DNA from: an uncultured Planctomycetia bacterium
GTDB lineage: Bacteria > Omnitrophota > Gorgyraeia > 2-02-FULL-51-18
NCBI GenBank assembly: GCA_964606485.1
Contig: CAZSGP010000003.1
Span: 270,479 to 334,478, forward strand
Length of the DNA stretch: 64,000 nt
Direction of reading: 5' to 3'
Numbering within the stretch: the stretch's first letter is position 1; each line of letters opens with the position of its first letter. This document shows, one piece after another, positions 1,280-30,230 of the stretch. Under the pieces are notes generated by a model, which was given only the letters and a program-made list of their open reading frames with translations, searched no databases and was not told the DNA's origin. The position numbers were made by a program, and so were the translations under genes.

Positions 1280-1283
1280 TTTC

Positions 1284-13266: not shown

Positions 13267-14458
13267 CCCTCGACTGAATTCGATTCACCACAATGTCCGC
13301 AAAAGCGAAGCTACTCGTAAAAGCCGGTGACACCGCATTAAGAATGTGTGTTGACCGCGGGCCGTCTTCAATTAAAAAATCCATCACGAGTTTTAAAGAT
13401 TTTTTATCAACGAGCTGAGCACGAAGCCCGACTTTTCCGCAAGATTGAATGTCTTCTTTTTTTAAGAACGGCGCCAAGCGCTGGATACACTTTAGAAATA
13501 CAGACGGATTGTATTTGAAAATTTCCTGACGCACCAACGTGCGAAAGCCGTTTAGATTTTTTAGCATCATCCTGGAAAGATCGCGAGCGATGCCGGCCCA
13601 TTCACCGTCAATACCACTAAACAAACCATAATTTTCACGGCCAAAAGCCGGAATAGCCGTCGGACCCACGTACACCTCGCCCGAGACGGTTTTGGTGGTG
13701 TGAACCCCTAGAAACGGTACATCCAGATCTGGTACCGGGTAAATGGATCCGCGAAAACGCGACGCCGCCTCTGGGCGCAGCTTGCGGTAGATTCCCTTAA
13801 ACGGCATAATTTTGTAACGCTCTCCCACTCCCATGGCATGAGCCACTTCGTCAGCATGAAGTCCCGCGGCATTGATAAGGTGTCCGAAGTGAATTTTAGA
13901 GGATCCACAAGATAAGAAACCGCTTTCAATGTCGCCCAACCGCGCGTTTTTCCGAATCGTCACGCCTTGCGCTGTGATGTCATTTTCCAAAGCAGCCAAC
14001 ACAGCCTTTGAATCAATCACATTAGTATCTGGTGAAAAAATAGCGGCCTCAACCGTGCGCGCTTCTGGCTCAATCTGAGAAAGCCTTTTTTCGTCGATGA
14101 GTTCAACGCGTACGCCGTTGGCACGGCCGCGGTCAAATAAATTTTTCAAAGAAGACACTTGAGAAACATCAGATGCAACAATGACTTTTCCGTTCTTAGC
14201 CAAAGGAAGTTTTTTTTCAGCGCAGTAATCCGCAAGTAGTCGCGCGCCGGCGGCGCAAACTTTAGCTTTTAAGGAATCGGGAGCGTAGTAAATACCAGTG
14301 TGCAAAACACCGCTGTTGCGGCCGCTAGAATGAAGGCCAAGTGCGCGCTCTTTTTCGAGAATGCAGACCGTACCCAGCTTCAGCGCCGCAATTTTTCTAG
14401 CCACCGCCAAACCCACGATGCCCGCCCCGACAATAACGAAGTCGTAACGCTCGCTCAT
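13259..14458 (-). CDS. FAD-dependent oxidoreductase, L-2-hydroxyglutarate oxidase (LhgO)-like
   Basis: Dinucleotide-binding N-terminus YDFVIVGAGIVGLAVA and a DAO-family length. The substrate is unknown in this context. Confidence 0.6.
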   Translation of the reverse strand: MSERYDFVIVGAGIVGLAVARKIAALKLGTVCILEKERALGLHSSGRNSGVLHTGIYYAPDSLKAKVCAAGARLLADYCAEKKLPLAKNGKVIVASDVSQVSSLKNLFDRGRANGVRVELIDEKRLSQIEPEARTVEAAIFSPDTNVIDSKAVLAALENDITAQGVTIRKNARLGDIESGFLSCGSSKIHFGHLINAAGLHADEVAHAMGVGERYKIMPFKGIYRKLRPEAASRFRGSIYPVPDLDVPFLGVHTTKTVSGEVYVGPTAIPAFGRENYGLFSGIDGEWAGIARDLSRMMLKNLNGFRTLVRQEIFKYNPSVFLKCIQRLAPFLKKEDIQSCGKVGLRAQLVDKKSLKLVMDFLIEDGPRSTHILNAVSPAFTSSFAFADIVVNRIQSRVA

Positions 14459-14688
14459 TCGTCTTTGTGTGCCCAGTTGCGGGCCTTGTTGTAGGCCTTA
14501 CCGACTTTGTCTTCAAGCTTGGGCGATAAAAGTCGGAGCAATTCTTTTCCGAGAATCCGGTATTGTTTTCCCACCTTGGCCGAACGGATCAAGCCCTTCT
14601 TAATCATCCGGGTCACCGTGCTCGAGCTAAGCTTTAGAAGCTGCTGGGTCTCTTCGTGCGTATAGACTTCATTTTCTTTGATTTCCAT
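14455..14688 (-). CDS. Small helix-turn-helix DNA-binding protein (excisionase/MerR-type HTH_17)
   Basis: 77-aa protein with YTHEETQQLLKLSSSTVTRMIKKGLIRSAKVGKQYRI, typical of excisionase-family HTH domains. It is the first gene of the minus-strand operon, 4-nt overlapped (ATGA) with the next gene. Confidence 0.6.
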   Translation of the reverse strand: MEIKENEVYTHEETQQLLKLSSSTVTRMIKKGLIRSAKVGKQYRILGKELLRLLSPKLEDKVGKAYNKARNWAHKDE

Positions 14689-14717: not shown

Positions 14718-14813
14718 ATCATATCATTACCAGTCATTGGCAGTCAAACATAGATGTGGGAGAGCTTAAAAATATCATTGCAGGCCCTATCAATAAAATA
14801 TAGAATTTCTCCC

Positions 14814-16286
14814 ATGCTCTTCAATTCCTTTGAATTCGCAGTATTTTTCCCTATCGTCACACTCCTCTACTTTGTTTTACCTCATTCAATGCGATGGTTA
14901 CTGCTGTTAATCGCCAGTTGCTATTTTTACATGGCGGCGATACCCGTTTATATCCTAGTGCTTTTCATACTGATTGGAATTGATTATGTCGCCGGCATTT
15001 TCATCGAGCAAAGCTCCGGGAAAAGACGTAAGTTGTATTTGATTATCAGTTTGATTTCAAATTTAAGTGTTTTGGCTTTATTTAAATACTTCAACTTCTT
15101 TAACGCCAACATAGCTGCACTTGCCAAACTCTTAAACTGGAATTACCCCGTCCGCGCGCTTGAACTCATATTGCCCATCGGGCTGTCCTTTCACACATTT
15201 CAAGCAATGAGCTACACCATTGAGGTTTATCGCGGCCAACAAAAAGCCGAACGACACCTGGGGATTTATGCTTTGTATGTCATGTTCTATCCTCAGCTCG
15301 TTGCAGGTCCAATTGAGCGCCCGCAAAATCTAATTCATCAGTTTCACGAAAAACATACGTTCGATGCGATCAGGGTTTCTGATGGCCTAAAATTAATGCT
15401 ATGGGGGCTTTTCAAAAAAATCGTGATAGCGGATCGTCTTGCAATTCTGGTCAACCACGTTTACGACTCACCACTGGACAAGCCTGGAGCCATCTTGCTC
15501 CTTGGCACCGTGTTTTTTGCCTTTCAGATTTACTGCGATTTCTCCGGCTACGCGGACATCGCAATCGGCTCCGCTCAAGTGATGGGTTTCAAGCTCATGG
15601 ATAACTTCAATAGGCCCTATGCCGCGCGCTCTATCGCTGAATTTTGGAAACGCTGGCACATTTCACTCAGCACCTGGTTCAAGGATTATCTCTACATTCC
15701 GCTCGGCGGAAACCGCGTTGCTCAACCGCGTCTTTACTTTAATCTATTGATCACCTTTTTGATCAGCGGTCTTTGGCACGGAGCCAACTGGACATACGTA
15801 GTATGGGGCGCGCTTAATGGCTTTTATCTAGCTATGTCAATGACGACGGTTCATATTCGAAAAAAAATAACGGACGCATTAGGCTTCGACCGCAGGCCCA
15901 CACTTCACAAGTGGGTTAAAGTAAGTTCGACTTTTTCGTTAATTTGTTTCGCCTGGATTTTTTTTAGAGCCAATTCTATCAGCGAAGCGCTGATGATTAT
16001 TCAACGCATTTTTTTGGATTTTGGAAAGTCAATAAATCCAACTTATCTTCGCTACGATGTTTTCACGTTAAAGAATATGGGTTTTTATAAAACGGACCTA
16101 CTACTGGCCCTTGTGTCCATTGCGCTTATGGAATTTATTCACAAAATCCAGACGCACGGCAGCATTCGCCACATGCTTAGGCAGTATAATATTTTCATTC
16201 GCTGGGGCCTTTATTACGCAATGATTCTATCTATTGTCTTTTGCGGCGTTTTTAAATATACACCGTTTATCTATTTTCAGTTTTAG
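14814..16286 (+). CDS. MBOAT-family membrane-bound O-acyltransferase (AlgI/DltB-like)
   Basis: MLFNSFEFAVFF start typical of AlgI/DltB, multi-pass membrane sequence, and the conserved His region (WHISLSTWFKDYLYIPLGG, LWHGANW). Start is taken at the internal ATG 14814; the ORF begins at 14754. Confidence 0.8.
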   Translation: MLFNSFEFAVFFPIVTLLYFVLPHSMRWLLLLIASCYFYMAAIPVYILVLFILIGIDYVAGIFIEQSSGKRRKLYLIISLISNLSVLALFKYFNFFNANIAALAKLLNWNYPVRALELILPIGLSFHTFQAMSYTIEVYRGQQKAERHLGIYALYVMFYPQLVAGPIERPQNLIHQFHEKHTFDAIRVSDGLKLMLWGLFKKIVIADRLAILVNHVYDSPLDKPGAILLLGTVFFAFQIYCDFSGYADIAIGSAQVMGFKLMDNFNRPYAARSIAEFWKRWHISLSTWFKDYLYIPLGGNRVAQPRLYFNLLITFLISGLWHGANWTYVVWGALNGFYLAMSMTTVHIRKKITDALGFDRRPTLHKWVKVSSTFSLICFAWIFFRANSISEALMIIQRIFLDFGKSINPTYLRYDVFTLKNMGFYKTDLLLALVSIALMEFIHKIQTHGSIRHMLRQYNIFIRWGLYYAMILSIVFCGVFKYTPFIYFQF

Positions 16287-16293
16287 AAATCCT

Positions 16294-17298
16294 ATGAAAA
16301 AATGGCTCTTAAGATACGCTGGTTTTACTGCTGGATTTGTTACACTCTACATCGCATTCATGTGGCTGGCAGCGCTTCCGGTTCTCGATAAGTACCCTCA
16401 CCTGCGATATCTGTTTCTGGATCGTAAAATTGTGAAGCTCGTAACAAATGCCGGCAATCTTGAAGCTGACAATAACGATGGTGCTAATTTATTAAGATTT
16501 CAAGAGCTTCGAAAAACCGGCCAAGTTGATATTTTGGCCCTTGGCTCATCGCATTGTTACATGTCGTTTGATCCGCGCGTATTCTCGCAATACGGACTAT
16601 CCAGTTTTGCGTTGGGTAGCGGCAGCCAAACACCCCTAAACTCCTACTATCTGCTCAAGACCTATTTTCCGCAACTAAAACCCAAATTAGTCATCTTAGA
16701 CGTCTATTCACTCGTCAACGAAAGCGATGATGGACTGGAAAGTTTTTGCGAAATCTTGGTTAGTAGTCCGATCCACGTAAATTTAATTCGAATGGCTATG
16801 GCAACTTCCTCGATGCACGCCTTCAACGCACTAACCTTTGAATGGATGCGGCGAATTTGGCTACCTCTCGAGAATCGGGTTCAATCCCCAACTTTTTCGG
16901 GTGAGTATGTATCCGGCGGTTATGTGGTCGACAATACCACCTTTGACGGTACCGGTTCGTTTAAAAACCGGAATTTGCGTTTGTCAAAAAAGCAGTTGGG
17001 CTACTTAGAAAAGATCATCCGCGCCGTTCAAAAAGAAAACTCAAAGATTGTGCTAGTGACAGTTCCGTACTCGTATGAGTATCGCCAAAGTTTTTTGAAT
17101 GATGAGGAGCTCGCGGGCACCTATCGATTGCTGGCCACAAAACACCACATCTCTTACTATGACTTTAATGCGTTAATGGACACTCGAAACAACGCTTATT
17201 TTTCCGATAAAAGCCATTTGAATGGTTATGGCGCTGAAACCTTTTGCCATCTTTTGATGAAGGTAATAAAATCAGATCCGCTCTATCAGTCGCTCTAA
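16294..17298 (+). CDS. DltD/AlgX/AlgJ-like SGNH-type partner protein of the MBOAT acyltransferase
   Basis: N-terminal membrane anchor MKKWLLRYAGFTAGFVTLYIAFMWL followed by LALGSSHC (a SGNH-like Ser-His region). It starts 8 nt after the MBOAT stop; the ORF begins at 16234. Confidence 0.55.
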   Translation: MKKWLLRYAGFTAGFVTLYIAFMWLAALPVLDKYPHLRYLFLDRKIVKLVTNAGNLEADNNDGANLLRFQELRKTGQVDILALGSSHCYMSFDPRVFSQYGLSSFALGSGSQTPLNSYYLLKTYFPQLKPKLVILDVYSLVNESDDGLESFCEILVSSPIHVNLIRMAMATSSMHAFNALTFEWMRRIWLPLENRVQSPTFSGEYVSGGYVVDNTTFDGTGSFKNRNLRLSKKQLGYLEKIIRAVQKENSKIVLVTVPYSYEYRQSFLNDEELAGTYRLLATKHHISYYDFNALMDTRNNAYFSDKSHLNGYGAETFCHLLMKVIKSDPLYQSL

Positions 17299-19160
17299 TT
17301 TTTACGCCTATAAATGCTGTATGAAAATTTCTTGGGCTTTTCGGTGAAAGAGTACATAAACACTCTCGTGTAATTTTTCTCAAGCTCTTTTGCCAGGAAC
17401 GGCTCAACGCCGCTAGACTCCTCAACCCATACCAACGCAAAGCATTCCCGTTTAAGATACGCCTCGAAGCTGTCATCCGCTTTTTCAAGTGCCTGTCGCT
17501 CAGCCGGCATTACAATTATCGGCAGAGTTCCTTGGTCATAAAAATAACGCCTCTCTCCGGACACCAGCACCCTCTCTCCGGGCTTTAAGTTTTGCTTTAA
17601 ATACTCATAACCCTTAAACGATCGCTCATGCTCTCTCAAATAATCTTCGGTGCTCTGCAGACCGGTAATCACTCCCCAAGAATCGCGCGTGCGGTACAAA
17701 AATAATGCCGAATGAATGATAATCACCAACACAAACAGCACTCGGATCGCCACTCCAGCCAACCGCTTTTGGTCCCACAATGCGTTAAGAGCAACGCCGC
17801 ACCCTAAGGCCAAAAATGGCAAAAGCGCCAAGATGTACCGGATCTGTTGGGACTGGGTAAATAAAAAGAGAATCCCAAAAAATGTGAACGCCGCCATCCA
17901 GCGCGCCGGTGCTGTTGATTGCTTGATTTTAAAAATAAGCGGCGGTAAAAACATGAGGTACAGCGGCCCTAATATCTCACCGCCAAACGGTTTCGGATGC
18001 AGTGTCATGTTCCATAAAAGTTTCAAAAATGCAGCTGGACCGTAACCCAATCCGTCGCGAATATTCATTTCGTATCCGTTCCCCCCAAAAAACGAAGGAA
18101 AAAATGGGTACAACGGATTACCTAAAATCCACCAGCTTCGCAAATACCAAATACCAGCCGTTAAAAATGATCCAAGAAAAAAAAGCGCGCAAGCTTTCAG
18201 TTTGTTTTTTGACCGGATTCCCCAAAAAATGAATAGAATGCCAGCAAAACCGAGCGCCAGGTACTTCGTGGCGAGTGCCCCGCCCATAAAAACCCCCGAC
18301 CACCAGGCCGCGCGGCTCTCACTCTTGTGCTGCACCAGAAATAATTGAACTGAAAGAAACGTAAAAAATGCGAGAGCTAGATCGACATAGGCTTGGCTCG
18401 ACTGAGTAAAGATAGCGGGTGTAAAAATAAATACGGCGGCACCAAGCGCTGCTGAACGAGAACTTGTGTATCGTTTTCCAAAAATGTAAATTGCCGTCGC
18501 GGTTAAAACGTAAAATGCCCAGTGAAATAGCTTGGCCAATGCCGTTCCTTGCAATAAAAGTCCGAGTGTAAAAAGCATTTCGGTTTGCAACGGCCATAGA
18601 GAGGCAAAACTGTAAGGCAAATAGTCGATTCTGCCTTTTAAAATAAAGTCCCGCGGATAAGCCAAATGATACGCAAGCGCGTCACTTTCGATGGGAGGCG
18701 TCAAACACTGAGTCCAAGCTAGAAAAAAAACAGGCGCGATCATTATTGCTAGTCGCCATCCATTCTTCTCAAATCCTAACGGACTGGGTTTAGTTTTAAT
18801 GAGGAAGAATGATCCGAGAAAAAGAAAACAAAGTAACAGCGTAATTGAAACCGTGCTAACAAATCCCGCTATCCCCAAAAGAAGGACTCCCAGCGCAAGG
18901 ACAATAATTCCCGTCCCCATCGCAAAGAAGGCGGTTTCTTCCATAGCGACAGCTGCGGCTCCAAGCCCACCACTCAAATGAATGACTTTTTGGCCGGTTT
19001 GAAGAGCAATTCTTAATATAACCGCCAACCAAACGGATGCTAAAACGGCTTGCAGTAAACCCGTCCGGACAAACTCCATTAAAATGCGCCTTGAATCTTG
19101 GGTAGCAGCACCCAAAACCCGTAGAGAGTCAGCACCAAAATACTCCAAAAAAGGGCGCAA
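17295..19160 (-). CDS. GT-C-fold membrane glycosyltransferase (ArnT/PMT_2-like)
   Basis: 621-aa polytopic protein with about 12 hydrophobic segments and a large C-terminal soluble domain. An acidic-His motif (ESDALAYHLAY) follows the first TM region, as in ArnT/PMT enzymes. Confidence 0.6.
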   Translation of the reverse strand: MRPFLEYFGADSLRVLGAATQDSRRILMEFVRTGLLQAVLASVWLAVILRIALQTGQKVIHLSGGLGAAAVAMEETAFFAMGTGIIVLALGVLLLGIAGFVSTVSITLLLCFLFLGSFFLIKTKPSPLGFEKNGWRLAIMIAPVFFLAWTQCLTPPIESDALAYHLAYPRDFILKGRIDYLPYSFASLWPLQTEMLFTLGLLLQGTALAKLFHWAFYVLTATAIYIFGKRYTSSRSAALGAAVFIFTPAIFTQSSQAYVDLALAFFTFLSVQLFLVQHKSESRAAWWSGVFMGGALATKYLALGFAGILFIFWGIRSKNKLKACALFFLGSFLTAGIWYLRSWWILGNPLYPFFPSFFGGNGYEMNIRDGLGYGPAAFLKLLWNMTLHPKPFGGEILGPLYLMFLPPLIFKIKQSTAPARWMAAFTFFGILFLFTQSQQIRYILALLPFLALGCGVALNALWDQKRLAGVAIRVLFVLVIIIHSALFLYRTRDSWGVITGLQSTEDYLREHERSFKGYEYLKQNLKPGERVLVSGERRYFYDQGTLPIIVMPAERQALEKADDSFEAYLKRECFALVWVEESSGVEPFLAKELEKNYTRVFMYSFTEKPKKFSYSIYRRKN

Positions 19161-19212
19161 TACACGTAGGGAAAATCATTTTTCATAGCGGGTATGTTAT
19201 CACAATTCAAAT

Positions 19213-19240
19213 TGATTTTAGCCCTAAAAAGTCGTAGATT
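19213..19240 (+). promoter_or_regulatory. Candidate sigma70-type promoter (TTGATT-16-TAGATT) for the plus-strand glycan operon
   Basis: Hexamers at 19213..19218 and 19235..19240 lie 7 nt upstream of the ATG at 19248, with AAGG as a possible RBS. Confidence 0.3.
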
Positions 19241-19247
19241 AAGGCCC

Positions 19248-20237
19248 ATGAATTATAATTTTAAGGGTCGCCGCGCGCTCATTACCGGCGGCCTTGGATT
19301 CATCGGCAGTAATCTAGCGCTAAAACTGGTTGAGCTCGGCGCTCACGTCACTTTAGTTGACGCCATGATTCCCGAATATGGCGGCAACCCTTTCAACATC
19401 GAACCCGTCAAAGACAAAGTCACTATTAATTACGGTAATATTTGCGATGCGCACGCGATGAATTGGCTTGTGCGCGACCAAGACTATGTTTTCCATTTGG
19501 CAGGCCAAGTTTCCCACGTCAAAAGTCTTCATGATCCATTTACTGATATTGAATATAACATTAAGGGCACCGCTACGCTTGCCGAAGCCATGCGAACACA
19601 TAACCCCAAAGCAAAGCTCGTATTTACCGGTACGCGCGGCCAATACGGATCCGTGGCAAAGCTCCCCGCTGCAGAAGACACGCCGGTAAATCCCAAGGGA
19701 ATCTACGAAATTACAAATCTGGCCGCCGAACAAATTATTAAAGCCTATCATCGCTCGCACAATCTCCAGGCGGTATTACTTCGCTTGACAAATATCTACG
19801 GTCCCCGCGGCCAGATGAAGCATTCACAGTTTGGCGTTGTAAATTGGTTCGTTAGATTGGCCATTGATGGAAAGACCCTTCCGATTTTCGGAGACGGAAA
19901 AATTCTACGCGACTTTGTTTACGTGGATGACTGTGTGGATGCTATTTTGATGGCAGCCGCAAAACCAGAAGCTGTCGGAGAAATTTTTAATGTTGGTACC
20001 GATAAACCCTCGGATTTTCTAACACTCGCTAAAATCATAACCAGCCAAACCGGTAAGGGGCGTTGGGAATTTGCTCCATTTTCCGAAGAACGAAAAGCTC
20101 AAGAACCCGGTGATTTTTATTCTGACATCTCCAAAATCCGCTCCATTGTCGGCTGGGAGCCTAAGACGAACCTTGAGGACGGCATTCGTCAGACAATCAC
20201 CTATTACCAGCAACACCAATCCCGCTACTGGCCGTGA
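19248..20237 (+). CDS. NAD-dependent epimerase/dehydratase (extended SDR) with an atypical catalytic motif
   Basis: ALITGGLGFIGSNL Rossmann motif and extended-SDR length. The canonical YxxxK reads YEITN (Lys replaced by Asn). Start is taken at the ATG at 19248 (MNYNFKGRRALITGG), downstream of the candidate promoter. Confidence 0.65.
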   Translation: MNYNFKGRRALITGGLGFIGSNLALKLVELGAHVTLVDAMIPEYGGNPFNIEPVKDKVTINYGNICDAHAMNWLVRDQDYVFHLAGQVSHVKSLHDPFTDIEYNIKGTATLAEAMRTHNPKAKLVFTGTRGQYGSVAKLPAAEDTPVNPKGIYEITNLAAEQIIKAYHRSHNLQAVLLRLTNIYGPRGQMKHSQFGVVNWFVRLAIDGKTLPIFGDGKILRDFVYVDDCVDAILMAAAKPEAVGEIFNVGTDKPSDFLTLAKIITSQTGKGRWEFAPFSEERKAQEPGDFYSDISKIRSIVGWEPKTNLEDGIRQTITYYQQHQSRYWP

Positions 20238-21409
20238 TAGAGAAAGGTCGCATCCCAGCTCTGGACGGCGTCCGGGGGCTGGCCATTCTCTTAGTCTTAT
20301 TCCATCACTTTACAATTATCATCCCCCGAACTCGTGTCGAAACTTATTGGAAAGAAATTTCTGAGCTAGGCCGCTACGGCGTAGATCTGTTTTTTGTTCT
20401 ATCCGGCTTTCTAATCACGGGTATCTTGATTAATAGCCGGAACAAACCCGATTATTTTCGGAATTTTTATATCCGCCGCTCACTCCGCATCTTCCCTTTG
20501 TATTATTTATTGGTCATCGGCAGCCTAACGGTGCTTCCAAAGCTGTTAAACCTACTGCCCCCGCCACTTTCCGAGCAAATCGCCTCACAAACGGTCGCGG
20601 GCCACTGGCTTTGGTACGCCACTTATTGCTCCAACTTCTTAATTGCCCTTCAGAACAAGTATTCTCACGGCACCTTAGATATCAGCTGGTCGCTTTGTAT
20701 CGAAGAGCATTTTTATTTAATATGGCCATTTCTTATTTACACCTGCGGAAACAGCACAGTAAAAAAAATTTGTGTTTGGGCTATTTCAGGCGCTCTGGCG
20801 TTGCGTATTTTATTGTGGAGCTTGGGTTTTTCTCGCCTGCAAATCTACGTGCTAACCTTCACGCGTATAGACGCCATCTTATTCGGCGCGCTGCTTGCGG
20901 TGTTATTCGCGGAACCTTCTACCCGAGCCAAATGGGCATCGCTCAGCCGAAAAAAACTATTTCTTGGATTGGGATTTGTGCTGGCAGCGCTCGCTCTCTA
21001 CGGACAATTCCGCTATGATTCCTTTACAATGAACACCATTGGCTACACGGTAGTTGCAATATTCTTTCTACTCCTCATTGATTTATGTCTGCCCGGTCAA
21101 AACGGAAACAACTTTGAAAGATTTTTTGACCATCCTTTCTTTAAATTTTTCGGAAAATACTCCTATGCGCTGTATATTTTTCACCTGCCCTCAACCTACT
21201 TCACCAAACACGTTTTTTTTAGGGGCAACGACTTTCATTCGCTTCCGGGTTTTGCTATACTATGGCAGTTTATTTTTTACGTCATCGCAACACTTGTCAG
21301 CGTTCTCCTAGCTCTGGCAAGCTGGAATTTATTAGAAAAACCAATGCTTTCTCTAAAAGAGAAATTGACAAAAATGAAGCCGGTCAATGCCGTCCATCCA
21401 AAACTCTAG
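20234..21409 (+). CDS. Acyltransferase family 3 (OafA/YrhL-type) integral membrane O-acyltransferase
   Basis: [18 protein letters not shown]-terminal motif and about 10 TM segments. ATGA overlap with the upstream gene. Confidence 0.75.
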
Positions 21410-22505
21410 CGCCGTACGTTTTGGCGATTTATCCCGTGAGTACTCTGCCCTCAAAAGTGAAATTGATTCGGTTGTCGGAAATGTTCTTACCAGCGGCTCA
21501 TTTATCTTAGGACAAGAGCTGGTTCACTTTGAAAAAGCGTTTTCTGCATATCTAGGAATACCTCACTGCGTCGGAGTCGCCTCTGGCACCGAGGCAATTG
21601 CGATTGCTCTTTTAGCTTGCGGCGTTAAGCCGGGCGACGAAGTGATCACCGTTTCTTATACTGCCCCGCCAACCGCCATGGCCATTTCTATGATTGGAGC
21701 CGTCCCAAAATTCGTGGATATTGAGGAGCGCTCTTGCTTAATGGACATTTCAAAATTTGAACAAGCCGTAACCCCCAAAACAAAAGCTGTGGTTCCGGTC
21801 CACATGTACGGTCAATGCGTGGATATGGACCCCCTCTTAAAAATTGCGCGTGCGCATGGTTGCCGCGTTGTTGAAGATTGCGCGCATGCCCATGGAGCGA
21901 CTTACAACGGCAAAAAAGCCGGCACCTTGGGTGACGCAGCCGCTTTCAGCTTTTATCCCACGAAAAATCTCGGCGCCTATGGTGATGGCGGCGCGGTCAC
22001 GACGAATGACGCCGCCATCTATGAGAAGGTCCGTCTATTGCGCAATTATGGCTTGCAAAAGCGCGGACACTACACGCTAAAAGGTTGGAACAGCCGCCTC
22101 GATGAAATACAAGCCGCGATTTTAAGCGTTAAGCTTAAACACCTGGACCAATGGAATCTTCGCCGCCGTGCCATTGCCGCTCGGTATCAAAATGGGTTAT
22201 CGGGGCTTAATCTTAAGCTTCCCCAGGAAATACCGGGACGCTTTTCGGTGTATCATCTCTATGTCGCACACACTGCGCGACGCGATCAGGCAATCAACTA
22301 TCTGAAAGAACGCGGCGTCGAGGCCATGGACCACTACGCATTTGCTTCACACACACTGGAAGCGTTTAAAAATCTTTCTTCCCCTTCACTTCCGGTCACC
22401 GAACAAAAGGCCGCCCAATCTTTGTCACTGCCCATCTACCCTTATTTACAGGATTCCGAAGTCGACCGTGTCATCGAAGCTGTGAGGGATTTTTTCAAAT
22501 CATGA
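21387..22505 (+). CDS. DegT/DnrJ/EryC1-family PLP-dependent sugar aminotransferase (ArnB-like)
   Basis: Typical sugar aminotransferase sequence ([29 protein letters not shown]). Confidence 0.8.
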
Positions 22506-23437
22506 AAACGCTGTCCATCGTCGTTCCTGTTTACTGTAATTCCGGCAGCCTTCAGGCTCTCAAGGTAGAATTCGACAAAGTTGCAGCGGCGCTTTCAGAG
22601 TACGTCTGCGAATTCGTTTTCGTTGATGACGGCTCTCCTGACGATTCTTATTTGGTATTAAAGGAATTAGCCGCAGATCCCCGCGTGCGCGTGGTCAAGC
22701 TTTCGCGCAATTTCGGATCAAATGCGGCTATCCACGCAGGTCTTACACACGCCAAGGGCGACGCCGTGGCCATCATATCCGCTGATCTCCAAGATCCCCC
22801 AGAAATGATTCCCGATCTCGTCCGCTCCTGGGAAAAAGGTTTTTCTGTAGTATTAGCCGCGCGGAACAACCGAGAGGACGGCCTTCTCACGCGCTTTTTT
22901 TCCAATATTTTCAACCAGCTCTTCCGCAAATTCGTATTTCGAGATTTCCCGCGCGGGGGCTTTGATTTTCTGCTCATCGACAAAAAAGTGGTGACGATTC
23001 TTGTTGATTTGGCCGAGAAAAATTCTTATATTTTTGGACAAGTGCTCTGGGTTGGCTTTAAGCGCACAGTTCTTTACTACAATCGTCGTCAACGCCACAG
23101 CGGCCGCTCTCATTGGACATTCTTGAAAAAAATTAAGTACTTCATCGACGCTTTTACTGCATTCTCCTACTTGCCTATACGGCTTATGTCAGCACTCGGC
23201 TTCATCATGGCAACGCTTGGAATTCTTTATGCTGGCACCGTTGTGATTTTATCGAGGGTCTTTTATTACAAAATTCCCACAGGCTGGGCGTCGCTGGTAA
23301 TCATCATTCTGACCGTTTCAGGCACCCAGTTAATTCTAATGGGCGTGCTTGGCGAGTATCTCTGGCGTGTACTAGATGAATCGCGTCGGAGACCGCTCTA
23401 CGTCGTTGAATCCGTCGACGAAAAAATCCAACCATGA
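22502..23437 (+). CDS. GT2 polyprenyl-phosphate glycosyltransferase with C-terminal TM helices (ArnC/GtrB/CsbB-like)
   Basis: VVPVYCN...VDDGSPD...DLQDPPE GT-A motifs. Two C-terminal hydrophobic helices ([43 protein letters not shown]) are typical of ArnC/GtrB. Confidence 0.8.
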
Positions 23438-24093
23438 AGCGTGGCCAAAACGTTACCATTTATCCTAATGTATCAATTGGCAAAGACTGCATCCTCTTTG
23501 ACGGCGCCGTAATCGGTCGTCCGCCGATGGCCACAAAGACAATGAACCGTTTAATTCCAAAAAAAATTCCGGGCCTCAAAATCGGCTCCTCCTGCATCAT
23601 TGGAGCCAACAGTGTTCTGTATACGGGTAGCCGGCTTGGCGACGGCGTCTTAATAGGAGATCTCGCCTCAATCCGCGAAGGCTGTCAAATCGGAGAAGGG
23701 TCGGTGATTGGACGCGGTGCCATGTTGCTTTATGACTGCATGATTGGAAACTACGTTCGCATTCAAGATCAAGTGCATATTGCCGGAAAAACCATAATTG
23801 AGGATCATACTTTTATTGGTATGGGGGTAGTGACGTCCAACGATAACGATGTCTATTTGTCCCGTTTCGGCTTGGCGCCATTACGCCATCAAAAACTGGT
23901 AATTCGTAAATATGCTTTTATCGGCGTCAACGCCACACTCTTGCCGGGGATCGAAATTGGGAGAGGCGCCATCGTTGCGGCCGGTGCCGTAGTCACAAAA
24001 GATGTTCCAGCTTGGACAATGGTGGCCGGCGTCCCGGCGCGCCATTTTAAAAATATACCCAATGATTGGCGCCGCAAAGTAGAAAAAAAATAA
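23434..24093 (+). CDS. Left-handed beta-helix (hexapeptide repeat) acyl/acetyltransferase
   Basis: Repeated [LIV]G-x-x-x-x-I hexapeptides throughout the 219-aa protein. ATGA overlap with the upstream GT2 gene. Confidence 0.7.
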   Translation: MKRGQNVTIYPNVSIGKDCILFDGAVIGRPPMATKTMNRLIPKKIPGLKIGSSCIIGANSVLYTGSRLGDGVLIGDLASIREGCQIGEGSVIGRGAMLLYDCMIGNYVRIQDQVHIAGKTIIEDHTFIGMGVVTSNDNDVYLSRFGLAPLRHQKLVIRKYAFIGVNATLLPGIEIGRGAIVAAGAVVTKDVPAWTMVAGVPARHFKNIPNDWRRKVEKK

Positions 24094-24103
24094 AGCAAAA
24101 CCC

Positions 24104-25582
24104 ATGACACCTTCTCCAAGCCTCTTTTATTATCTCTACAAACTACTAGAAACTAATCGGTACACAGGTTATCTTCTGTTGTTGGTAGCAGCGCTACCTT
24201 TCCTGAAATTTATTAAACTACCAAAGTTCTCCCCCAAAATAACATTGATTCTAATCCTCCTGCTGGGCGCTCTCTTAAGGTTAGGTTGGCTTGGATTTTC
24301 AAGTCACACCCCCAAAACATCCTACGCTCAGGGATCAATCTATGAAGGCGACATCATTAATATTCATGCCGTTGATATTACACGTGGCGTATGGTTTTAT
24401 AATTCCGAAAATCTACCCTCTGCCCGCAGGCCCATCGGCTACCCGGTCGTCCTCGGCGTTTTTTATAAGCTTTTTGGCGTAAGTACGGCTGTAGCCTACG
24501 GGTTGCACCTGGCGCTGCATCTAGCAACAATCCTTCTGCTTTATTTAATCGGTAAGCGGCTATTCGGCGAAGGTCCGGGGCTTTTGGCGGCATTTCTCTT
24601 CTCTATTTACCCCATTTCTATTTACAGCATCAAGCTGATTACGGACGAAAACCTTTTCCTGTCCATTTGGTACGCTGGGCTCTATTTATTAATCCGGGAC
24701 ATTTCCGGACGGCGCATTCCTTTCGCGCCGCTCTGGTATGGAATTATTTTTGGTTATGCTGCCATGACACGAACGCATGTCATTTTTATGCCTCTCGTCG
24801 TTGCGTTGGCATATTTGCTAGTAAAGCGTTCTTGGAGAAAAATTATCACTGCTTTTATTATCACAGCGCTCGCCATGCAGCTTGTAAATCTGCCCTGGAT
24901 CCTGCGCAATTACCATGTCTGGAAAACATTCGTCCCCTACACACTGAACGGACGCGGCATCTATTCGGCGGTCAACTCCACCTCAACCCCTGAGGGCGGG
25001 CAAGTGCCGGAGCGCGGCCAACCAGGATACTCGGAGGAACTAGAAGCCGCTGTCAAGTCGGAGAATATTTTAAGCGTCCATCGCATATCCAATCATCTGA
25101 TGACGCGCTGGATCATAGAACATCCGGTTGATTTTTTAGACTTGGGCTCAAAGCGGCTGGTTGTTTTTTTGGGTTGGCAACGCTTAGGCGTCTGGCCAAT
25201 TTGGTTCCAGTATTATGATAATCATTTTGATCCAACCAGGCCAATTTCGCAAAAATTTAAAGACTCGCTTGAGGAATATGCTTATATTTTTTACTATATT
25301 CTCTTCTTCGCCTTCTTCTTTTCCCTTGTACTAGTTTTCAGGAAAAGAAAATCACTTACTCCGGAGATGCGCAACGGTATCATCGTAGTAGGGGCGTGCT
25401 TTCTATTGTACTGCGCGGAACAAATGATTATTTACCCCGACCGGAAATACCGCTATCCCCTCGAACCGCTGATGATTCTTTTTGCTTCCTACTGGATCGT
25501 TTATTGGGCGGAATCATTCCGCTGGAGGGAAATGAAAATTATTTCGTGGGTAAACCGAAAGTTTCTAAAAAAAATTATCTAG
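24104..25582 (+). CDS. GT-C-fold membrane glycosyltransferase (ArnT/PMT_2-like)
   Basis: 492-aa polytopic membrane protein with an acidic-His motif after TM1 (SIYEGDIINIHAVD). It immediately follows the aminotransferase, GT2 and acetyltransferase genes, in an Arn-like gene order. Confidence 0.6.
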   Translation: MTPSPSLFYYLYKLLETNRYTGYLLLLVAALPFLKFIKLPKFSPKITLILILLLGALLRLGWLGFSSHTPKTSYAQGSIYEGDIINIHAVDITRGVWFYNSENLPSARRPIGYPVVLGVFYKLFGVSTAVAYGLHLALHLATILLLYLIGKRLFGEGPGLLAAFLFSIYPISIYSIKLITDENLFLSIWYAGLYLLIRDISGRRIPFAPLWYGIIFGYAAMTRTHVIFMPLVVALAYLLVKRSWRKIITAFIITALAMQLVNLPWILRNYHVWKTFVPYTLNGRGIYSAVNSTSTPEGGQVPERGQPGYSEELEAAVKSENILSVHRISNHLMTRWIIEHPVDFLDLGSKRLVVFLGWQRLGVWPIWFQYYDNHFDPTRPISQKFKDSLEEYAYIFYYILFFAFFFSLVLVFRKRKSLTPEMRNGIIVVGACFLLYCAEQMIIYPDRKYRYPLEPLMILFASYWIVYWAESFRWREMKIISWVNRKFLKKII

Positions 25583-27858
25583 CTTGGGTTAGGCAAGTAA
25601 GTTGCGCACAATCCCACCAAAACCAACGCCAGCACTGCCAGATGCGCCCATAGGCCAATGGTGTAGTATTTTGGCTCGAATTTAAACCACAGCTCGTGAG
25701 AGCCCGCTGATAAAAATACTCCCTGGAAAGCGCCGAGCGCGCGCTCAACCAAACTCTTCCGCCCGTCAGCCGTGACCGTCCAATTCTGGTCGTACGTTTG
25801 ATTACGCACAAGATAGCCGGCCTCCGGCATCGTCACTCGAAGCCGCACTCCGTCGTTTTGACGGTCAATAATTTCGGAGGAGACCTGTTTGGATGCAGAA
25901 AAATCAGCACCCTTATTAATATTTTTTAAAAAACTAAACTCCTGCTTCCTGGCGGGATTGCGAAAATATTCCTTTTCGGTGCCTCCGACTTTTAATCGGC
26001 CCTCGGAAGAAAAATCATTAATCGGAATATCGCTGAGCACATAATCCACTCCGAGAAAATTGATCAGATCCCGCTTCTCATTAAAGGCAGTTTCGCTAAA
26101 AGGCCTGCGCCCTAGAGAATCATCGCTCCCCCCCAAATCTTTAACCAGCGCGTAATAGTCTTTATCCAAAAGTGGCGAATAAGCATTCACGTTTGAGTGT
26201 CCGGTGGGTATGTTCATGCTTGGAGGGCAAAGGTCTTTGCCATTCTTTGAAATCTCAAGCCATTTACCTTGCGGAGCGCTAGCTAAAGGCCGTAAATCCA
26301 AAAAATTCCCACGCCCACAAATAATACTCGTGGCCTTGGCCTTAAAACCGGGTAAACCATAACCATAGACAACCAAATCTAAGCAGAGTAAAAATAAAAT
26401 TATACGGGCAGCGTTTATCCATGCAATCTTCCGTCTCCATACCACCGCAAAAACAAGAATCTGAATAAACGGCACAAGTATGACAGGATTTTGAAAAGGG
26501 TTTGTTGAGGCTCTAAGCTCAGCGATTGCTGTTTGAATTAAGCCAAAGTAGGTATCGATGCTTCGCTGATGAAAACTTTTACCAGCGACAAAGTTTTTAA
26601 TATACCAATGCCCGAACGCATCTAAAATCCCTGCTCCCACGTGCGCCATAGCAAAGAGAAGCGCGGCCATTGCGGCTACGCTCAGTGCCAAGATCAGAAA
26701 ACGCTGATGAATACGCTTTGTCCAATCAGCGGTCGGTTGCTTTAATTTCATCATGAAAGCATCGAAAGAAAATCCGGCAATCATCGACAGAAAAAAAGCC
26801 GCAAAAAATAGAAACTTCGAAGGATTACGCAGAAGCGATGCGATCGGAAATTTTATTAGGATCCAATAAAGCGGGTTAAAACGTCCAAGTGCCATAGCCA
26901 AACTAATCGCCAATAGAACCCACCACAATCCGGAGCGACCGCTTCTAGGTATCAACACTGCCAATGCAACAGGCGCAAACCCTATGTAAAAATTGCTGCT
27001 TAAAATTCCGTTCCAGCCGTAAAAAAATAAAAGGCTCAATGACCACGGTGCCATTGAACCCCAAAGTGCGAATTCCGGCTCCTGCAGGGTGCGCGTCGAA
27101 TGGGCCGCGAGCTCCAGCGTTGCCCAAATCTGAGGCAATCCAATTACCAATGCCGCTAACAAACTCCCCGCCAGCAAAACTGGGTTCGAACGTTTAAAAC
27201 CTCCGCTCAAATAATAATAAAACACCGCGAATCCAAACTGATACGCCGCCATCTGCACAAAACCCGCCAGCCATGTCTGTCCCACGATTAACGCCAGCCA
27301 GAACAATTCCCGAATACGATTAGTCTGGGAATAACGGTCAATCAAAAGAAGAATTAAAGGAAACCAGCAGAGCGTCTTCAGTGTTCCGAGCGTATAAAAA
27401 CCACCGGCCGATGCGCTGCCGAATGTAAAACAGATTGCCGTTAATGTGCCTGCTGCGCCCGACAAGCCCTTCGATCGTCCAAACATATACGCAAATGTGC
27501 CGCCCAATAAATAATGAATTAAAAAGTCGGTGTTATAGGCTATATGAAACGGTAGAAAGCGGAAAAGGGCCAGATTTGGAAGGTACAACATACCAGTTTG
27601 ACCCTCGGCAAAAAGTGGAAAACCTGACTGGATGAGCGGTGTCCACAAGAGTATTTTGCCGTGCTTCAGCGCCTCTGCGTAGGCCCAAGACCACGGATAA
27701 AATTGAGCCCCGTAGTCGCCCTTCACCAACCCTTGCGTGAAAGTTAAAAATGGCGCTACAAAAAATAGATATAGAACACCAAAGAAACTCAGAAAGACAG
27801 AGTGATCTTTAAGAAAATCCAAGAAACCGGATTTATTTTTTAATGCGGTAGAGTTCAA
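25579..27858 (-). CDS. YfhO-family membrane glycosyltransferase (GT-C-like)
   Basis: 759-aa polytopic protein with the YfhO-typical N-terminal region (GDYGAQFYPWSWAYAEAL) and a large C-terminal extracytoplasmic domain. Confidence 0.6.
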   Translation of the reverse strand: MNSTALKNKSGFLDFLKDHSVFLSFFGVLYLFFVAPFLTFTQGLVKGDYGAQFYPWSWAYAEALKHGKILLWTPLIQSGFPLFAEGQTGMLYLPNLALFRFLPFHIAYNTDFLIHYLLGGTFAYMFGRSKGLSGAAGTLTAICFTFGSASAGGFYTLGTLKTLCWFPLILLLIDRYSQTNRIRELFWLALIVGQTWLAGFVQMAAYQFGFAVFYYYLSGGFKRSNPVLLAGSLLAALVIGLPQIWATLELAAHSTRTLQEPEFALWGSMAPWSLSLLFFYGWNGILSSNFYIGFAPVALAVLIPRSGRSGLWWVLLAISLAMALGRFNPLYWILIKFPIASLLRNPSKFLFFAAFFLSMIAGFSFDAFMMKLKQPTADWTKRIHQRFLILALSVAAMAALLFAMAHVGAGILDAFGHWYIKNFVAGKSFHQRSIDTYFGLIQTAIAELRASTNPFQNPVILVPFIQILVFAVVWRRKIAWINAARIILFLLCLDLVVYGYGLPGFKAKATSIICGRGNFLDLRPLASAPQGKWLEISKNGKDLCPPSMNIPTGHSNVNAYSPLLDKDYYALVKDLGGSDDSLGRRPFSETAFNEKRDLINFLGVDYVLSDIPINDFSSEGRLKVGGTEKEYFRNPARKQEFSFLKNINKGADFSASKQVSSEIIDRQNDGVRLRVTMPEAGYLVRNQTYDQNWTVTADGRKSLVERALGAFQGVFLSAGSHELWFKFEPKYYTIGLWAHLAVLALVLVGLCATYLPNPS

Positions 27859-29488
27859 GGTATGGTCCTAGTCGTTTGCGGCTAAAGAGATCCAGCCACT
27901 GATGCGGCGCTGCGGTTGCGGCGAAGCGGTCCTCCACCTTCCTTTTGCTGACATCCCAATAAGGTGAAACGCTTTCAACCAGTTCAAGTCCCGGCAGAGT
28001 TTCCTTTAGCGCATGTTTACGCGCATCGATTTCCGCGTAATTCAAAAGAAGGTATTCGGCACCTGTCTCAAGCACGCTCTCGGCGTCGGGCGCCACAGTC
28101 GGCCGATAAAATAAATAAGCATCGCTCACATCATCCGTGGAACGAATCACATAAACGTTATACGTGGGTTTCCCCTCGACAACCTTAAGACTCAGGTCCA
28201 AACGCTTTTCTCGTGCAGAGCCCTTTTCCGAATCCGACAAAAATGCATATTTTTCAAGAATCTGCTCTATAGATTGCAATAAAGGCGCCCCAAAGAAGCG
28301 GTGATCAACCGCAATTACAGCGCCTGGCTTTACGTTGACGTGAATCCATTCGAGCATCTCAGCGCGAGTATCTTTTTTTGTCATCAAATAATCCGAATAA
28401 ATAGTAGGCGCCAAAAGCTCGGCCGTTACCGCCAACAGAAATAACGCCGATATCACCTTTATTCGGTGACGTGATTGCAAAAACTCAGCGCCAAGTCCCG
28501 CAAAAAGACATATCAGGGGCAAAATTGGCATCATATAGCGTGGAAACGGCTGGCTAAAAAAGATGCTGACGCCAAAATAAACAACTATAGCCAACGCGAT
28601 GACGGCTATTTTTTTTCCATAGACCCTACAAACCCCGACACCGACAGCTGACAACAATAGAAACAGTACACCTGTTCCGTACCGCAGAGAATACATGAGG
28701 TGATGCCCAACGCCCTGGTACCCTCTTACCTGCGATTGTCCGGCAACTTGAGAAATAAAATTAGGCCAATCAAGAAAACTAAAAGGGCTGATAGCTGCGT
28801 ATGTGGCAACTGAAATCATTCCAATAGCGATTAAATCCCGGATTTTATGTGAGGCTCTCGAAAAATAAATACTGACAGCCACCACCGGAAAAAAATAAAC
28901 GGCCGTGTATTTAACAGCCACACACCATCCAAATGCTAACCCTATAGCCCACAACCGACCGACGCTATATCGCTCAAGCGCACCCAGGCACAGATAAAAC
29001 AAAAGTAGACACGAAAACGATAGCACTATATCCATATAAATATAATGACTGTGTTGTGAATGTAAAAGACAAGCAGCCAGAAATAATCCCGACCAAAAAG
29101 CGCTTTTCTCGGAAAAAAAACGCCCGCATAGACGAATCAAAAGCCACACTGCAGCCACTCCCGGAATTACGCCCAACACCCATCGCCCAATCAAATAAAA
29201 TTCGGTGGGATCCGAAAGAAACTTTAAAGCAAAGTCCGCCGCACCGGTTACCCCGCCCACTGTTTTTAGGATGACGAAATACGCCGCATAAAAGAAAAAA
29301 AGGTAGTAGCTTGCAAATTGCGGCGGTAGATATGTGCGGGTATTCCAACCCTCGGCCCCGATAGCCATAGCATGATTAACCACGATTGGCTCATCTTGAT
29401 GAGTGGGGTACGGCAATCCAAAATCAAGACCGATAACGCGCAGAATAAGCGCTAGACTTAATATAAGAAAAATTTTATTTCGACTCAT
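27833..29488 (-). CDS. GT-C-fold membrane glycosyltransferase (ArnT/PMT_2-like; polyprenyl-phosphate-sugar dependent)
   Basis: Motif GLPYPTHQDEPIVVNHA after TM1 (the DE motif of the PMT/ArnT family), about 11 TM segments and a C-terminal soluble domain. Confidence 0.65.
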   Translation of the reverse strand: MSRNKIFLILSLALILRVIGLDFGLPYPTHQDEPIVVNHAMAIGAEGWNTRTYLPPQFASYYLFFFYAAYFVILKTVGGVTGAADFALKFLSDPTEFYLIGRWVLGVIPGVAAVWLLIRLCGRFFSEKSAFWSGLFLAACLLHSQHSHYIYMDIVLSFSCLLLFYLCLGALERYSVGRLWAIGLAFGWCVAVKYTAVYFFPVVAVSIYFSRASHKIRDLIAIGMISVATYAAISPFSFLDWPNFISQVAGQSQVRGYQGVGHHLMYSLRYGTGVLFLLLSAVGVGVCRVYGKKIAVIALAIVVYFGVSIFFSQPFPRYMMPILPLICLFAGLGAEFLQSRHRIKVISALFLLAVTAELLAPTIYSDYLMTKKDTRAEMLEWIHVNVKPGAVIAVDHRFFGAPLLQSIEQILEKYAFLSDSEKGSAREKRLDLSLKVVEGKPTYNVYVIRSTDDVSDAYLFYRPTVAPDAESVLETGAEYLLLNYAEIDARKHALKETLPGLELVESVSPYWDVSKRKVEDRFAATAAPHQWLDLFSRKRLGPYLELYRIKK

Positions 29489-30230
29489 CGGGCATTAGCA
29501 CATATACCGGCGTGGCTGTTTTTTTTCCAGCGCGGCGCGTTAGACGCCCAAGCGGAGAAAACTGCCAAAAGCCGTTGGCGGCTAATTTAAGCATTTTTGA
29601 TAAGGAATATTTGGTCTGACCCGCAAAACGGGCCTGTCGATGAATTGCAATGGGTTTTGGATTTTTAGCAGCGTAGGCCACCCATCCGCGGATATAAGGA
29701 TCTTTCTCATCAATCCCACGAATCACATCAGCAATGCTTTTGGACATCAGCCGGAAATCCCCGGTATCTAGCGGCAGCTTTACAGAAGAAAGGCTTCTCA
29801 GTGTTCTGTAAAAAATAGCGGCCGTCCATTTCTTGAAAAACGTTTCTCCATCACGTTTGGCTCGCATTGCGTAGACAACATCATACCCCTTCTCCCATTC
29901 GAGTAACATGTCCGCAAAGAGCTCGGGGGGGTCCTGTAAATCAGCATCAATAGTACCAACCGCTTCGCCCTTGGCATAATCGATGCCAGCCTTGAGCGCA
30001 ATCTGGTGGCCAAAATTCCTCGAGAAGCGTAAAACCCTCACATTCGGAGTCTGGGCGCGGATTTGGCTTAAAATTTCAGCGCTCCTGTCTTTCGATCCAT
30101 CGTCAACATAGATAATCTCGGATGAAACTTTCAACCCCTTAAGCGTTTTAAAAAGACGCGAATGAAACTCGCTCAACACCTCCTCTTCGTTATAAACAGG
30201 CACAACGATTGATAAGAATGGATCAGACAT
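29475..30230 (-). CDS. GT2 polyprenyl-phosphate sugar synthase (DPM1/ArnC-like, soluble type)
   Basis: SIVVPVYNEEE...VDDGSKDRS...[13 protein letters not shown] motifs. Start is taken at the internal Met MSDPFLSIVV (30230); the ORF extends to 30281. Confidence 0.75.
   Translation of the reverse strand: MSDPFLSIVVPVYNEEEVLSEFHSRLFKTLKGLKVSSEIIYVDDGSKDRSAEILSQIRAQTPNVRVLRFSRNFGHQIALKAGIDYAKGEAVGTIDADLQDPPELFADMLLEWEKGYDVVYAMRAKRDGETFFKKWTAAIFYRTLRSLSSVKLPLDTGDFRLMSKSIADVIRGIDEKDPYIRGWVAYAAKNPKPIAIHRQARFAGQTKYSLSKMLKLAANGFWQFSPLGRLTRRAGKKTATPVYVLMPDESK

Follow-up and report, generated by a model that had tools for sequence, protein, structure and literature searches.

The 64,000-nucleotide stretch of DNA analysed here (hereafter the window; positions 270,479 to 334,478 of contig CAZSGP010000003.1, from an uncultured member of the Omnitrophota) contains a six-gene operon whose probable role is glycosylation outside the cytoplasm with its own lipid-linked acetamido sugar. 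The six open reading frames (ORFs), identified by an ORF scan of the window, are all on the plus strand and span positions 19194 (or 19248, depending on the first start codon) to 25582. The feature is real, ordinary in kind and new in detail, and its most interesting element is a conserved subfamily of extended short-chain dehydrogenases/reductases (SDRs) that is tightly linked to a DegT aminotransferase, a QdtC-like acetyltransferase and a GtrB-like family 2 glycosyltransferase (GT2). The operon looks like a widespread four-gene cassette of these enzymes, together with an Omnitrophota membrane glycosyltransferase of the GT-C class and an added Acyl_transf_3 gene.

The ORF scan and Pfam comparisons bear out, for every gene, the order and families given in an original prediction made from the letters of the window. 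The first gene encodes an extended SDR (19194-20237; Epimerase, PF01370, 1e-53), for which the N-termini of homologs favor the ATG at 19248, the start chosen in that prediction, over the one at 19194. It is followed by an integral-membrane acyltransferase (20234-21409; Acyl_transf_3, PF01757, 6e-27, full length), a pyridoxal phosphate (PLP)-dependent nucleotide-sugar aminotransferase (21387-22505; DegT_DnrJ_EryC1, 4e-114), a predicted polyprenyl-phosphate GT2 of the GtrB/ArnC/PgfS family (22502-23437; Glycos_transf_2, 3e-25), a hexapeptide (left-handed beta-helix) sugar N-acetyltransferase, here called Hex (23434-24093; Hexapep, 2.5e-32), and a GT-C membrane glycosyltransferase (24104-25582; PMT_2, 3e-14), whose start in the NCBI gene call is 25 codons downstream of the ORF start used here. 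The translational coupling predicted for the whole unit is seen at the four overlapping junctions—a GTGA overlap between the SDR and Acyl_transf_3 genes, a 23-nt overlap between Acyl_transf_3 and DegT, and ATGA overlaps at both DegT/GT2 and GT2/Hex—but not between Hex and the GT-C, which are separated by a 10-nt gap. A promoter and terminator scan stayed at the level of chance, with 12 hits where 9.2 were expected and 12 where 9.7 were expected.

A second copy of the six-gene order is present on a 10.5-kb metagenome contig, in which the GT-C and the SDR are 60% and 79% identical, respectively, to those of the window, and a methyltransferase gene directly follows the GT-C. Chance juxtaposition of the six genes is ruled out by this kept order together with linkage across genomes.

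A conserved cassette and its atypical SDR

Linkage was scored within 6 kb of the SDR in 80 species-level genomes that carry the SDR subfamily. A DegT gene lies beside the SDR in 70 of these, a GT2 of the window lineage (38-59% identical) in 51, and a Hex of the window lineage (44-60% identical) in 45. The FdtA 3,4-ketoisomerase and a GT-C of the window family are each found near the SDR in 0 of the 80, and a GFO dehydrogenase in two, both weak matches. The genomes span Planctomycetota, Chloroflexota, Verrucomicrobiota, Actinomycetota, Thermodesulfobacteriota, Obscuribacterales and Omnitrophota, across which the SDR subfamily is 62-79% identical. In the Chloroflexota the arrangement MFS-DegT-SDR-Hex-GT2 is surrounded by unrelated genes and includes no glycosyltransferase other than the GT2; this isolated cassette ties the soluble enzymes to lipid loading, and is the main evidence for a polyprenyl-phosphate-linked product.

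The MFS transporter of the Chloroflexota cassettes (420-460 aa, MFS_1/MFS_3) is encoded directly upstream of DegT in loci L031, L039, L042, L044 and others (L numbers denote the loci compared). MFS proteins account for 16 of the 113 neighbouring proteins scanned, and are candidate flippases for a lipid-linked sugar.

The SDR matches no NCBIfam equivalog. Its best model is RmlB (191 bits; cut-off 365), the ArnA model gives just 30 bits (cut-off 777), and the best match in the Protein Data Bank (PDB) by family profile is the UDP-hexose 4-epimerase of T. maritima (4zrm, 171 bits). At the site occupied by T-D-E in dehydratases and by T-S-E in decarboxylases the window SDR has GTRGQYG, and at the site of YxxxK, a feature of all canonical extended SDRs, it has YEITN. 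These departures characterize the subfamily: of 120 close homologs, all have GTRG[QE]YG, 116 have Y[ED]x[ST]N and none has YxxxK. An RmlB-type dehydratase is ruled out by the first motif (T-R-G, not T-D-E), and a UXS/ArnA-type decarboxylase by the two together (no T-S-E and no YxxxK).

The SDR is the presumed source of the keto sugar for the aminotransferase. Its relatives oxidise C-4, or C-2 in the CDP-tyvelose 2-epimerases, and we know of no SDR-type nucleotide-sugar C-3 dehydrogenase, although no systematic search for one was made. No characterised member of the subfamily was found, and a literature search on 'YxxxN' SDRs led no further than the 'complex SDR' class, found in fatty-acid and polyketide synthases and irrelevant to extended SDRs. 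An extended SDR that is well conserved across phyla without the canonical Tyr/Lys pair presents a puzzle in enzymology.

Two cultured bacteria carry related SDR genes with generic annotation only. In Solidesulfovibrio carbinolicus pDCAR1 (L119) the SDR is 62% identical to that of the window and lies beside an acyltransferase and a glycosyltransferase, and in Azospirillum lipoferum 4B p6 (L120) a 40% identical SDR adjoins an annotated DegT gene. The SDRs of L120 and of L121, a locus without annotation, are 40-45% identical and have NGINK at the second site, with the Tyr gone and the Lys kept; this is complementary to the loss in the close subfamily, where the Lys is gone (YExx[N/L]). At the first motif the close and distant SDRs have only T/S-R and YG in common.

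Predicted amine position and lipid loading

The closest solved structures to the DegT protein are 7b0d (347 bits), DesV (334), QdtB (298), WlaRG (263) and WbpE (258), followed by perosamine synthase (233) and ArnB (172); the NCBIfam ArnB model gives 222 bits, against a cut-off of 631. DesV, QdtB, WlaRG and WbpE are C-3 aminotransferases, and a literature search on 7b0d found nothing. The DegT protein contains the motif SFYPTKNLG, the Lys of which is presumed to bind PLP, as in the family, and it is 53% identical to the DegT protein encoded after an FdtA 3,4-ketoisomerase in the syntenic locus L003.

A similar picture emerges for Hex, whose best-scoring solved relatives are QdtC (89 bits), WlbB (76), an FdtD-like enzyme (70) and 7s43 (65), with PerB at only 40 bits. 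QdtC, WlbB and the FdtD-like enzyme acetylate C-3 amines. PglD is a more distant solved relative than QdtC or WlbB, and Hex has no PglD-type N-terminal domain, unlike the other hexapeptide enzyme of the window, a PglD-like protein (7629-8219) to which it is just 30% identical over 93 aa. We reject an assignment of Hex as an O-acetyltransferase, as the N-acetyltransferases related to it give roughly double the score.

With two of the three soluble enzymes (DegT and Hex) resembling C-3 enzymes, an amine at C-3 is slightly favoured over one at C-4. Resemblance of this kind does not by itself fix the regiochemistry. No RmlB, 3,4-ketoisomerase or GFO-type 3-dehydrogenase is linked to the operon, and a tblastn search of the window with FdtA gave no match (best E value 0.8).

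The GT2 has two C-terminal hydrophobic helices (approximately residues 224-250 and 265-283), and its alignment with the PDB structure of Synechocystis GtrB (sll0501; residues 4-303 on 28-327, 203 bits) runs the full length. The alignment with the ArnC structure is also full length (residues 2-305 on 8-313), at 146 bits. Among NCBIfam models PgfS scores 211 bits (cut-off 500) and ArnC 167 bits (cut-off 529), both of which are under the equivalog cut-offs; thus, although ArnC shares the family and architecture of the window GT2, GtrB and PgfS score closer to it. On these alignments the GT2 is a member of the GtrB/ArnC/PgfS family and the equivalog of none of the three. Its identity to GT2s of the SDR cassette in other phyla is 48-59%, with 50% for the Chloroflexota copy, compared with 31-38% to the GT2s encoded beside other Omnitrophota GT-Cs.

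The Acyl_transf_3 protein has at least eight hydrophobic segments, and its translation includes a 12-residue N-terminal stretch and the sequence FFVLSGF, both of which we take to be typical of that family. The gene is in the same position on the second six-gene contig. It is near the SDR in only one of 80 other genomes, and we therefore regard it as an accessory gene. Its product, of OafA/Oac/WecH type, is presumed to O-acetylate the sugar or the acceptor glycan.

The GT-C enzyme and the proposed pathway

The GT-C protein has approximately 80 homologs at 40-60% identity, and those with names are nearly all from Omnitrophica, as are the named homologs of the housekeeping FabF (76-83% identity). 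It has no match at E<0.01 among PDB sequences, ArnT included, and no match to the NCBIfam ArnT model. A structure predicted with AlphaFold2 (pLDDT 88.9, pTM 0.90) has a generic GT-C fold that is no nearer to ArnT than to AglB or Pmt4, and AglB outscores ArnT. Conserved residues include an invariant D83 and a nearly invariant E81, RPxGYP at 109-114, D181-E182, R223, K448 and R450. The acidic E-x-D (E81/D83) is in a helix (81-93) of the predicted first outer loop, after the early transmembrane helices, a placement made from secondary structure, not superposition. The protein is presumed to be an extracytoplasmic transferase that uses a lipid-linked sugar.

The neighbourhoods of GT-C orthologs were compared in 32 metagenome loci. 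The orthologs usually adjoin a GtrB-type GT2 and a sugar-tailoring gene, and the order GT2-methyltransferase-GT-C is present in at least 14 of the 32; this pairing fits a donor synthase and transferase that act together on variable sugars. Their neighbours include Wzy_C, Wzx-type and capsule genes, and PMT_2/YfhO or PMT_2/DUF2079 genes often follow the GT-C.

A class I methyltransferase (about 260 aa) and a GT2 precede the GT-C in L001, L006, L088, L090, L093-L095, L098, L101, L104, L107, L109 and L111. The slot of the methyltransferase in these Omnitrophota loci is occupied in the window by Hex.

Gene content, family memberships, operon structure and linkage across phyla are observed directly. 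From them we infer a sequence of reactions, a carrier lipid, a site for the amine and a type of acceptor, and propose the following pathway. The atypical SDR would convert a common nucleotide sugar to a keto sugar, which DegT would transaminate, with C-3 slightly favoured and C-4 possible, and the QdtC-like Hex would then N-acetylate the amine. At the inner face of the membrane the GT2 would move the acetamido sugar onto polyprenyl (undecaprenyl) phosphate, a flippase encoded outside the operon would carry the lipid-linked sugar across the membrane, and the GT-C would pass the sugar to an acceptor at the outer face, with the Acyl_transf_3 protein adding an O-acetyl group. The most likely acceptor would be a polysaccharide or glycoconjugate of the cell surface, made by the 38-kb locus around the operon; a surface glycan is favoured by the nonulosonic-acid genes in the window and the Wzy, Wzx or capsule genes near GT-C orthologs.

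Several observations weigh against this pathway. The regiochemistry is contradictory: DegT and Hex are C-3-like, the SDR relatives oxidise C-4 (or C-2), and there is no ketoisomerase. The SDR has no canonical catalytic Lys, and the Tyr is gone in related DegT-linked SDRs, so its role as an oxidoreductase is an assumption. Neither the operon nor the rest of the 64-kb window encodes a flippase (of GtrA, ArnE/F, MATE or MFS type), and the GT-C orthologs pair with other GT2 lineages (those at 31-38% identity), such that the specificity for the donor is not inferable from the orthologs.

One alternative is that the operon combines two functions, with the SDR, DegT and Hex feeding the cytoplasmic Leloir glycosyltransferases of the main polysaccharide, and the GT2 and GT-C adding a side branch of a different, simple sugar such as glucose or N-acetylglucosamine. 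In keeping with this, most Omnitrophota GT-C orthologs pair with a GT2 and a methyltransferase and have no aminotransferase or acetyltransferase directly attached, the closest solved relative of the GT2 is the glucose-transferring GtrB, and three further soluble GT2 genes are present in the locus. We consider it unlikely, however, because the SDR, DegT, Hex and the GT2 lineage are found together in 45-51 of the 80 genomes, in several phyla and often with no other glycosyltransferase nearby, and because the window GT2 is of the cassette lineage, closer to the Chloroflexota copy than to the GT2s that accompany GT-Cs elsewhere in the Omnitrophota.

The GT-C might instead glycosylate Ser/Thr-rich exported proteins, in the manner of streptococcal Pgf, GtrB/PgtC2 or actinobacterial Ppm1/Pmt, but protein O-glycosylation appears distinctly improbable. 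PgfS is the best NCBIfam match of the GT2, and the Pgf system puts GalNAc on disordered Ser/Thr-rich regions (PMC12041528), although the PgfS match is far under the equivalog cut-off. There is no candidate acceptor protein in the locus, and the neighbours of the GT-C orthologs point to glycans. Furthermore, the GT-C is 492 aa long, compared with 690-731 aa for the solved Pmt chains matched; the MIR domain of those chains is not apparent in the GT-C, although no direct test was made.

Least of all can we favor an Arn-type modification of lipid A—UDP-glucuronic acid oxidatively decarboxylated, transaminated at C-4 and N-acetylated, with loading onto undecaprenyl phosphate, transfer by an ArnT-like enzyme and an effect on polymyxin susceptibility—which is highly improbable in spite of the full-length homology of the GT2 to ArnC, the Omnitrophota host and a DUF748 protein encoded in the window (of an AsmA-like family typical of diderms), as the SDR and DegT score far below the ArnA and ArnB cut-offs, the window has no ArnD-like deacylase and no ArnE/F, Chloroflexota and Actinomycetota commonly carry the core cassette, and the operon is embedded in a polysaccharide and nonulosonic-acid locus with five other GT-C-type genes. 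To our knowledge neither Chloroflexota nor Actinomycetota have lipid A, and Chloroflexota are generally without lipopolysaccharide. Judged from the Arn pathway, a sugar transferred here with no deacylase would stay neutral and bring none of the charge change behind polymyxin resistance.

The Arn system (ArnA/B/C/D/E/F/T), which places 4-amino-4-deoxy-L-arabinose on lipid A, was the parallel drawn in the original prediction. The overall logic is shared, in that both would oxidise, transaminate and N-acylate a sugar, load it onto undecaprenyl phosphate and transfer it with a GT-C, and homology and linkage uphold an N-acetylated amino sugar, polyprenyl-phosphate loading and GT-C transfer. The GT2 with C-terminal transmembrane helices is borne out, as a member of the GtrB/ArnC/PgfS family, by the full-length ArnC/GtrB alignments and the two helices, and N-acetylation in place of formylation is supported, with a hexapeptide acetyltransferase present and no formyltransferase domain in the window. 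The enzyme-by-enzyme parallel, in contrast, does not hold. The SDR departs from ArnA decarboxylase both in score and at the two motifs (GTRGQYG for T-S-E, and YExxN for YxxxK), the DegT protein is much closer to DesV, QdtB and WbpE than to ArnB, and the supposedly ArnT-like GT-C is no ortholog of ArnT, which it does not match in sequence and resembles in structure no more than it does AglB or Pmt4. The '4-amino' designation of the sugar is at best unproven, given that DegT is nearest to C-3 aminotransferases and Hex to 3-N-acetyltransferases, and nothing in the data points to lipid A or polymyxin. Neither a formyltransferase nor a polysaccharide-deacetylase (ArnD) domain was found in window ORFs of at least 150 aa, and no EmrE-like small ORF (ArnE/F) clear of larger genes was found in positions 1-38200. 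An 'ArnT/ArnC-like' annotation here should not be taken to denote genes for polymyxin resistance or lipid A modification.

Other lipid A systems offer a partial likeness. In Francisella (FlmF2/NaxD/FlmK) and Bordetella (LgmA/C/B) a HexNAc is linked to undecaprenyl phosphate and deacetylated, and the amino sugar is transferred to lipid A. There too the lipid is loaded with an N-acetylated amino sugar by a GT2 resembling ArnC, and a GT-C carries out the transfer in the periplasm; however, these systems draw on the common UDP-HexNAc and rely on a deacetylase to free the amine, whereas the window has a dedicated sugar pathway and no deacetylase.

Among the closest solved relatives of DegT and Hex are enzymes of the Qdt/Fdt pathways (RmlA, RmlB, QdtA/FdtA, QdtB/FdtB and QdtC/FdtD), which make dTDP-3-acetamido-3,6-dideoxyhexoses, and there are also similarities with the WbpB/WbpE/WbpD route to 3-acetamido uronic acids, through the matches of DegT to WbpE (258 bits) and of Hex to WlbB (76 bits). 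The related Omnitrophota locus L003 has FdtA-DegT-GT2-methyltransferase-GT-C in the same place. The window operon differs from both routes in having no linked RmlA/RmlB, ketoisomerase or GFO 3-dehydrogenase, with the atypical SDR instead, and in that its product would pass to a polyprenyl-phosphate GT2, not a Leloir transferase.

The broadest likeness is to three-component extracytoplasmic glycosylation, a class described in PMC11127046 (Kelly et al. 2024, pentofuranose systems) and set out also in PMC13390465. Examples are O-antigen glucosylation by GtrA/GtrB/GtrC, teichoic-acid glycosylation by CsbB/GtcA/YfhO, and the pentofuranose systems of PMC11127046. In common with these, the window has a GtrB-family membrane-anchored GT2, with a GT2 domain and a C-terminal transmembrane hairpin, and a GT-C with an acidic motif in the predicted outer loop, both encoded in one operon within a surface-glycan locus; auxiliary sugar-diversifying enzymes are present as in PMC11127046. 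It differs in that neither the operon nor the window has a flippase gene, the donor would have its own SDR/DegT/N-acetyltransferase route and would not be a common sugar, and the GT-C is from an uncharacterised family that is, as far as its members are named, almost confined to Omnitrophota.

If the proposed model holds, many uncultured or environmental bacteria of the Chloroflexota, Planctomycetota, Omnitrophota and other groups use a lipid-linked monosaccharide donor, not Leloir enzymes, and a tailored acetamido sugar reaches their surfaces. A stronger, joint reading is that the SDR is a dehydrogenase of a new type (possibly acting at C-3), that the cassette makes a 3-acetamido-3-deoxy donor in at least six phyla, and that the Omnitrophota glycan is built by GT-C enzymes; we offer this tentatively, and its parts are rather unlikely all to be correct. 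Were it true, the SDR would stand in for the dehydratase-plus-isomerase or GFO-dehydrogenase route, SDR-DegT-Hex-GT2 would constitute an unrecognised route to a polyprenyl-phosphate-linked 3-acetamido-3-deoxy donor in both monoderms and diderms, and the donor would go to one of the five or six GT-Cs of the locus, which would jointly build or decorate a surface glycan outside the cytoplasm, similarly to arabinan and mannan synthesis in mycobacteria.

The surrounding glycan locus

Around the operon is a glycan locus some 38 kb long, with housekeeping genes from 38 kb onwards. This locus also contains three soluble GT2 genes, a second Acyl_transf_3 gene, a C-methyltransferase gene and a third DegT gene, and the same macro-locus is found beside futalosine (Mqn) genes in other Omnitrophota, a group for which we know of no cultured model.

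A second GT-C, PMT/PMT_2-like and 621 aa long (17295-19160, minus strand; PMT 2.8e-6, PMT_2 4e-5), is divergent from the operon, and its homologs follow the GT-C orthologs in L003, L088, L090 and L096. Downstream of the operon is a convergent block on the minus strand, for which Pfam matches identify a YfhO-like protein (25579-27858), a PMT_2 protein (27833-29488), a short soluble GT2 (29475-30281) and another PMT_2 protein (30223-31845). In L003, L006, L090 and L096 a PMT_2 (about 555 aa)/YfhO (about 780 aa) pair comes after the GT-C ortholog. Overall, the minus-strand regions 17295-19160, 25579-31845 and 32893-34248 encode three PMT-type GT-Cs, the YfhO-like protein and a protein with 11 transmembrane segments and no Pfam match, which with the operon GT-C amounts to five or six GT-C-type enzymes in 17 kb. 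The locus thus suggests an Omnitrophota envelope glycan constructed largely by GT-C enzymes.

A complete-looking nonulosonic-acid pathway of the legionaminic or pseudaminic type is encoded at 542-11586 on the minus strand. It includes a fused UDP-GlcNAc 2-epimerase-NeuB (8216-10444), the PglD-like acetyltransferase, a CBS-nucleotidyltransferase, a GFO oxidoreductase and a CMP-transferase, as well as HisH/HisF-like genes and a 432-aa PP-loop protein with the motif SGGKDS and no Pfam match (2255-3553). The HisH/HisF-like genes and the PP-loop protein suggest an acetamidino group on the nonulosonic sugar.

An MBOAT protein (510 aa) followed by a 354-aa protein with a single transmembrane segment and a weak DUF1574 match is encoded at 14754-17298 on the plus strand, and the pair looks like those of DltB/DltD-like or AlgI/AlgJ-like acylation of an extracytoplasmic polymer; an MBOAT gene with a single-transmembrane partner is also present in L006. 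Between two divergent glycan operons is a 77-aa ORF (14455-14688, minus strand), the translation of which resembles an excisionase/MerR-type helix-turn-helix protein, and the related locus L003 encodes a 78-aa HTH_17 protein. Finally, a 661-aa fusion of VitK2_biosynth (MqnA-type) and radical-SAM/CofH_C (MqnC/E-type) parts is encoded at 38166-40151 on the minus strand, whereas in L003 the MqnA-type and MqnC/E-type parts are separate genes, with products of 286 and 378 aa.

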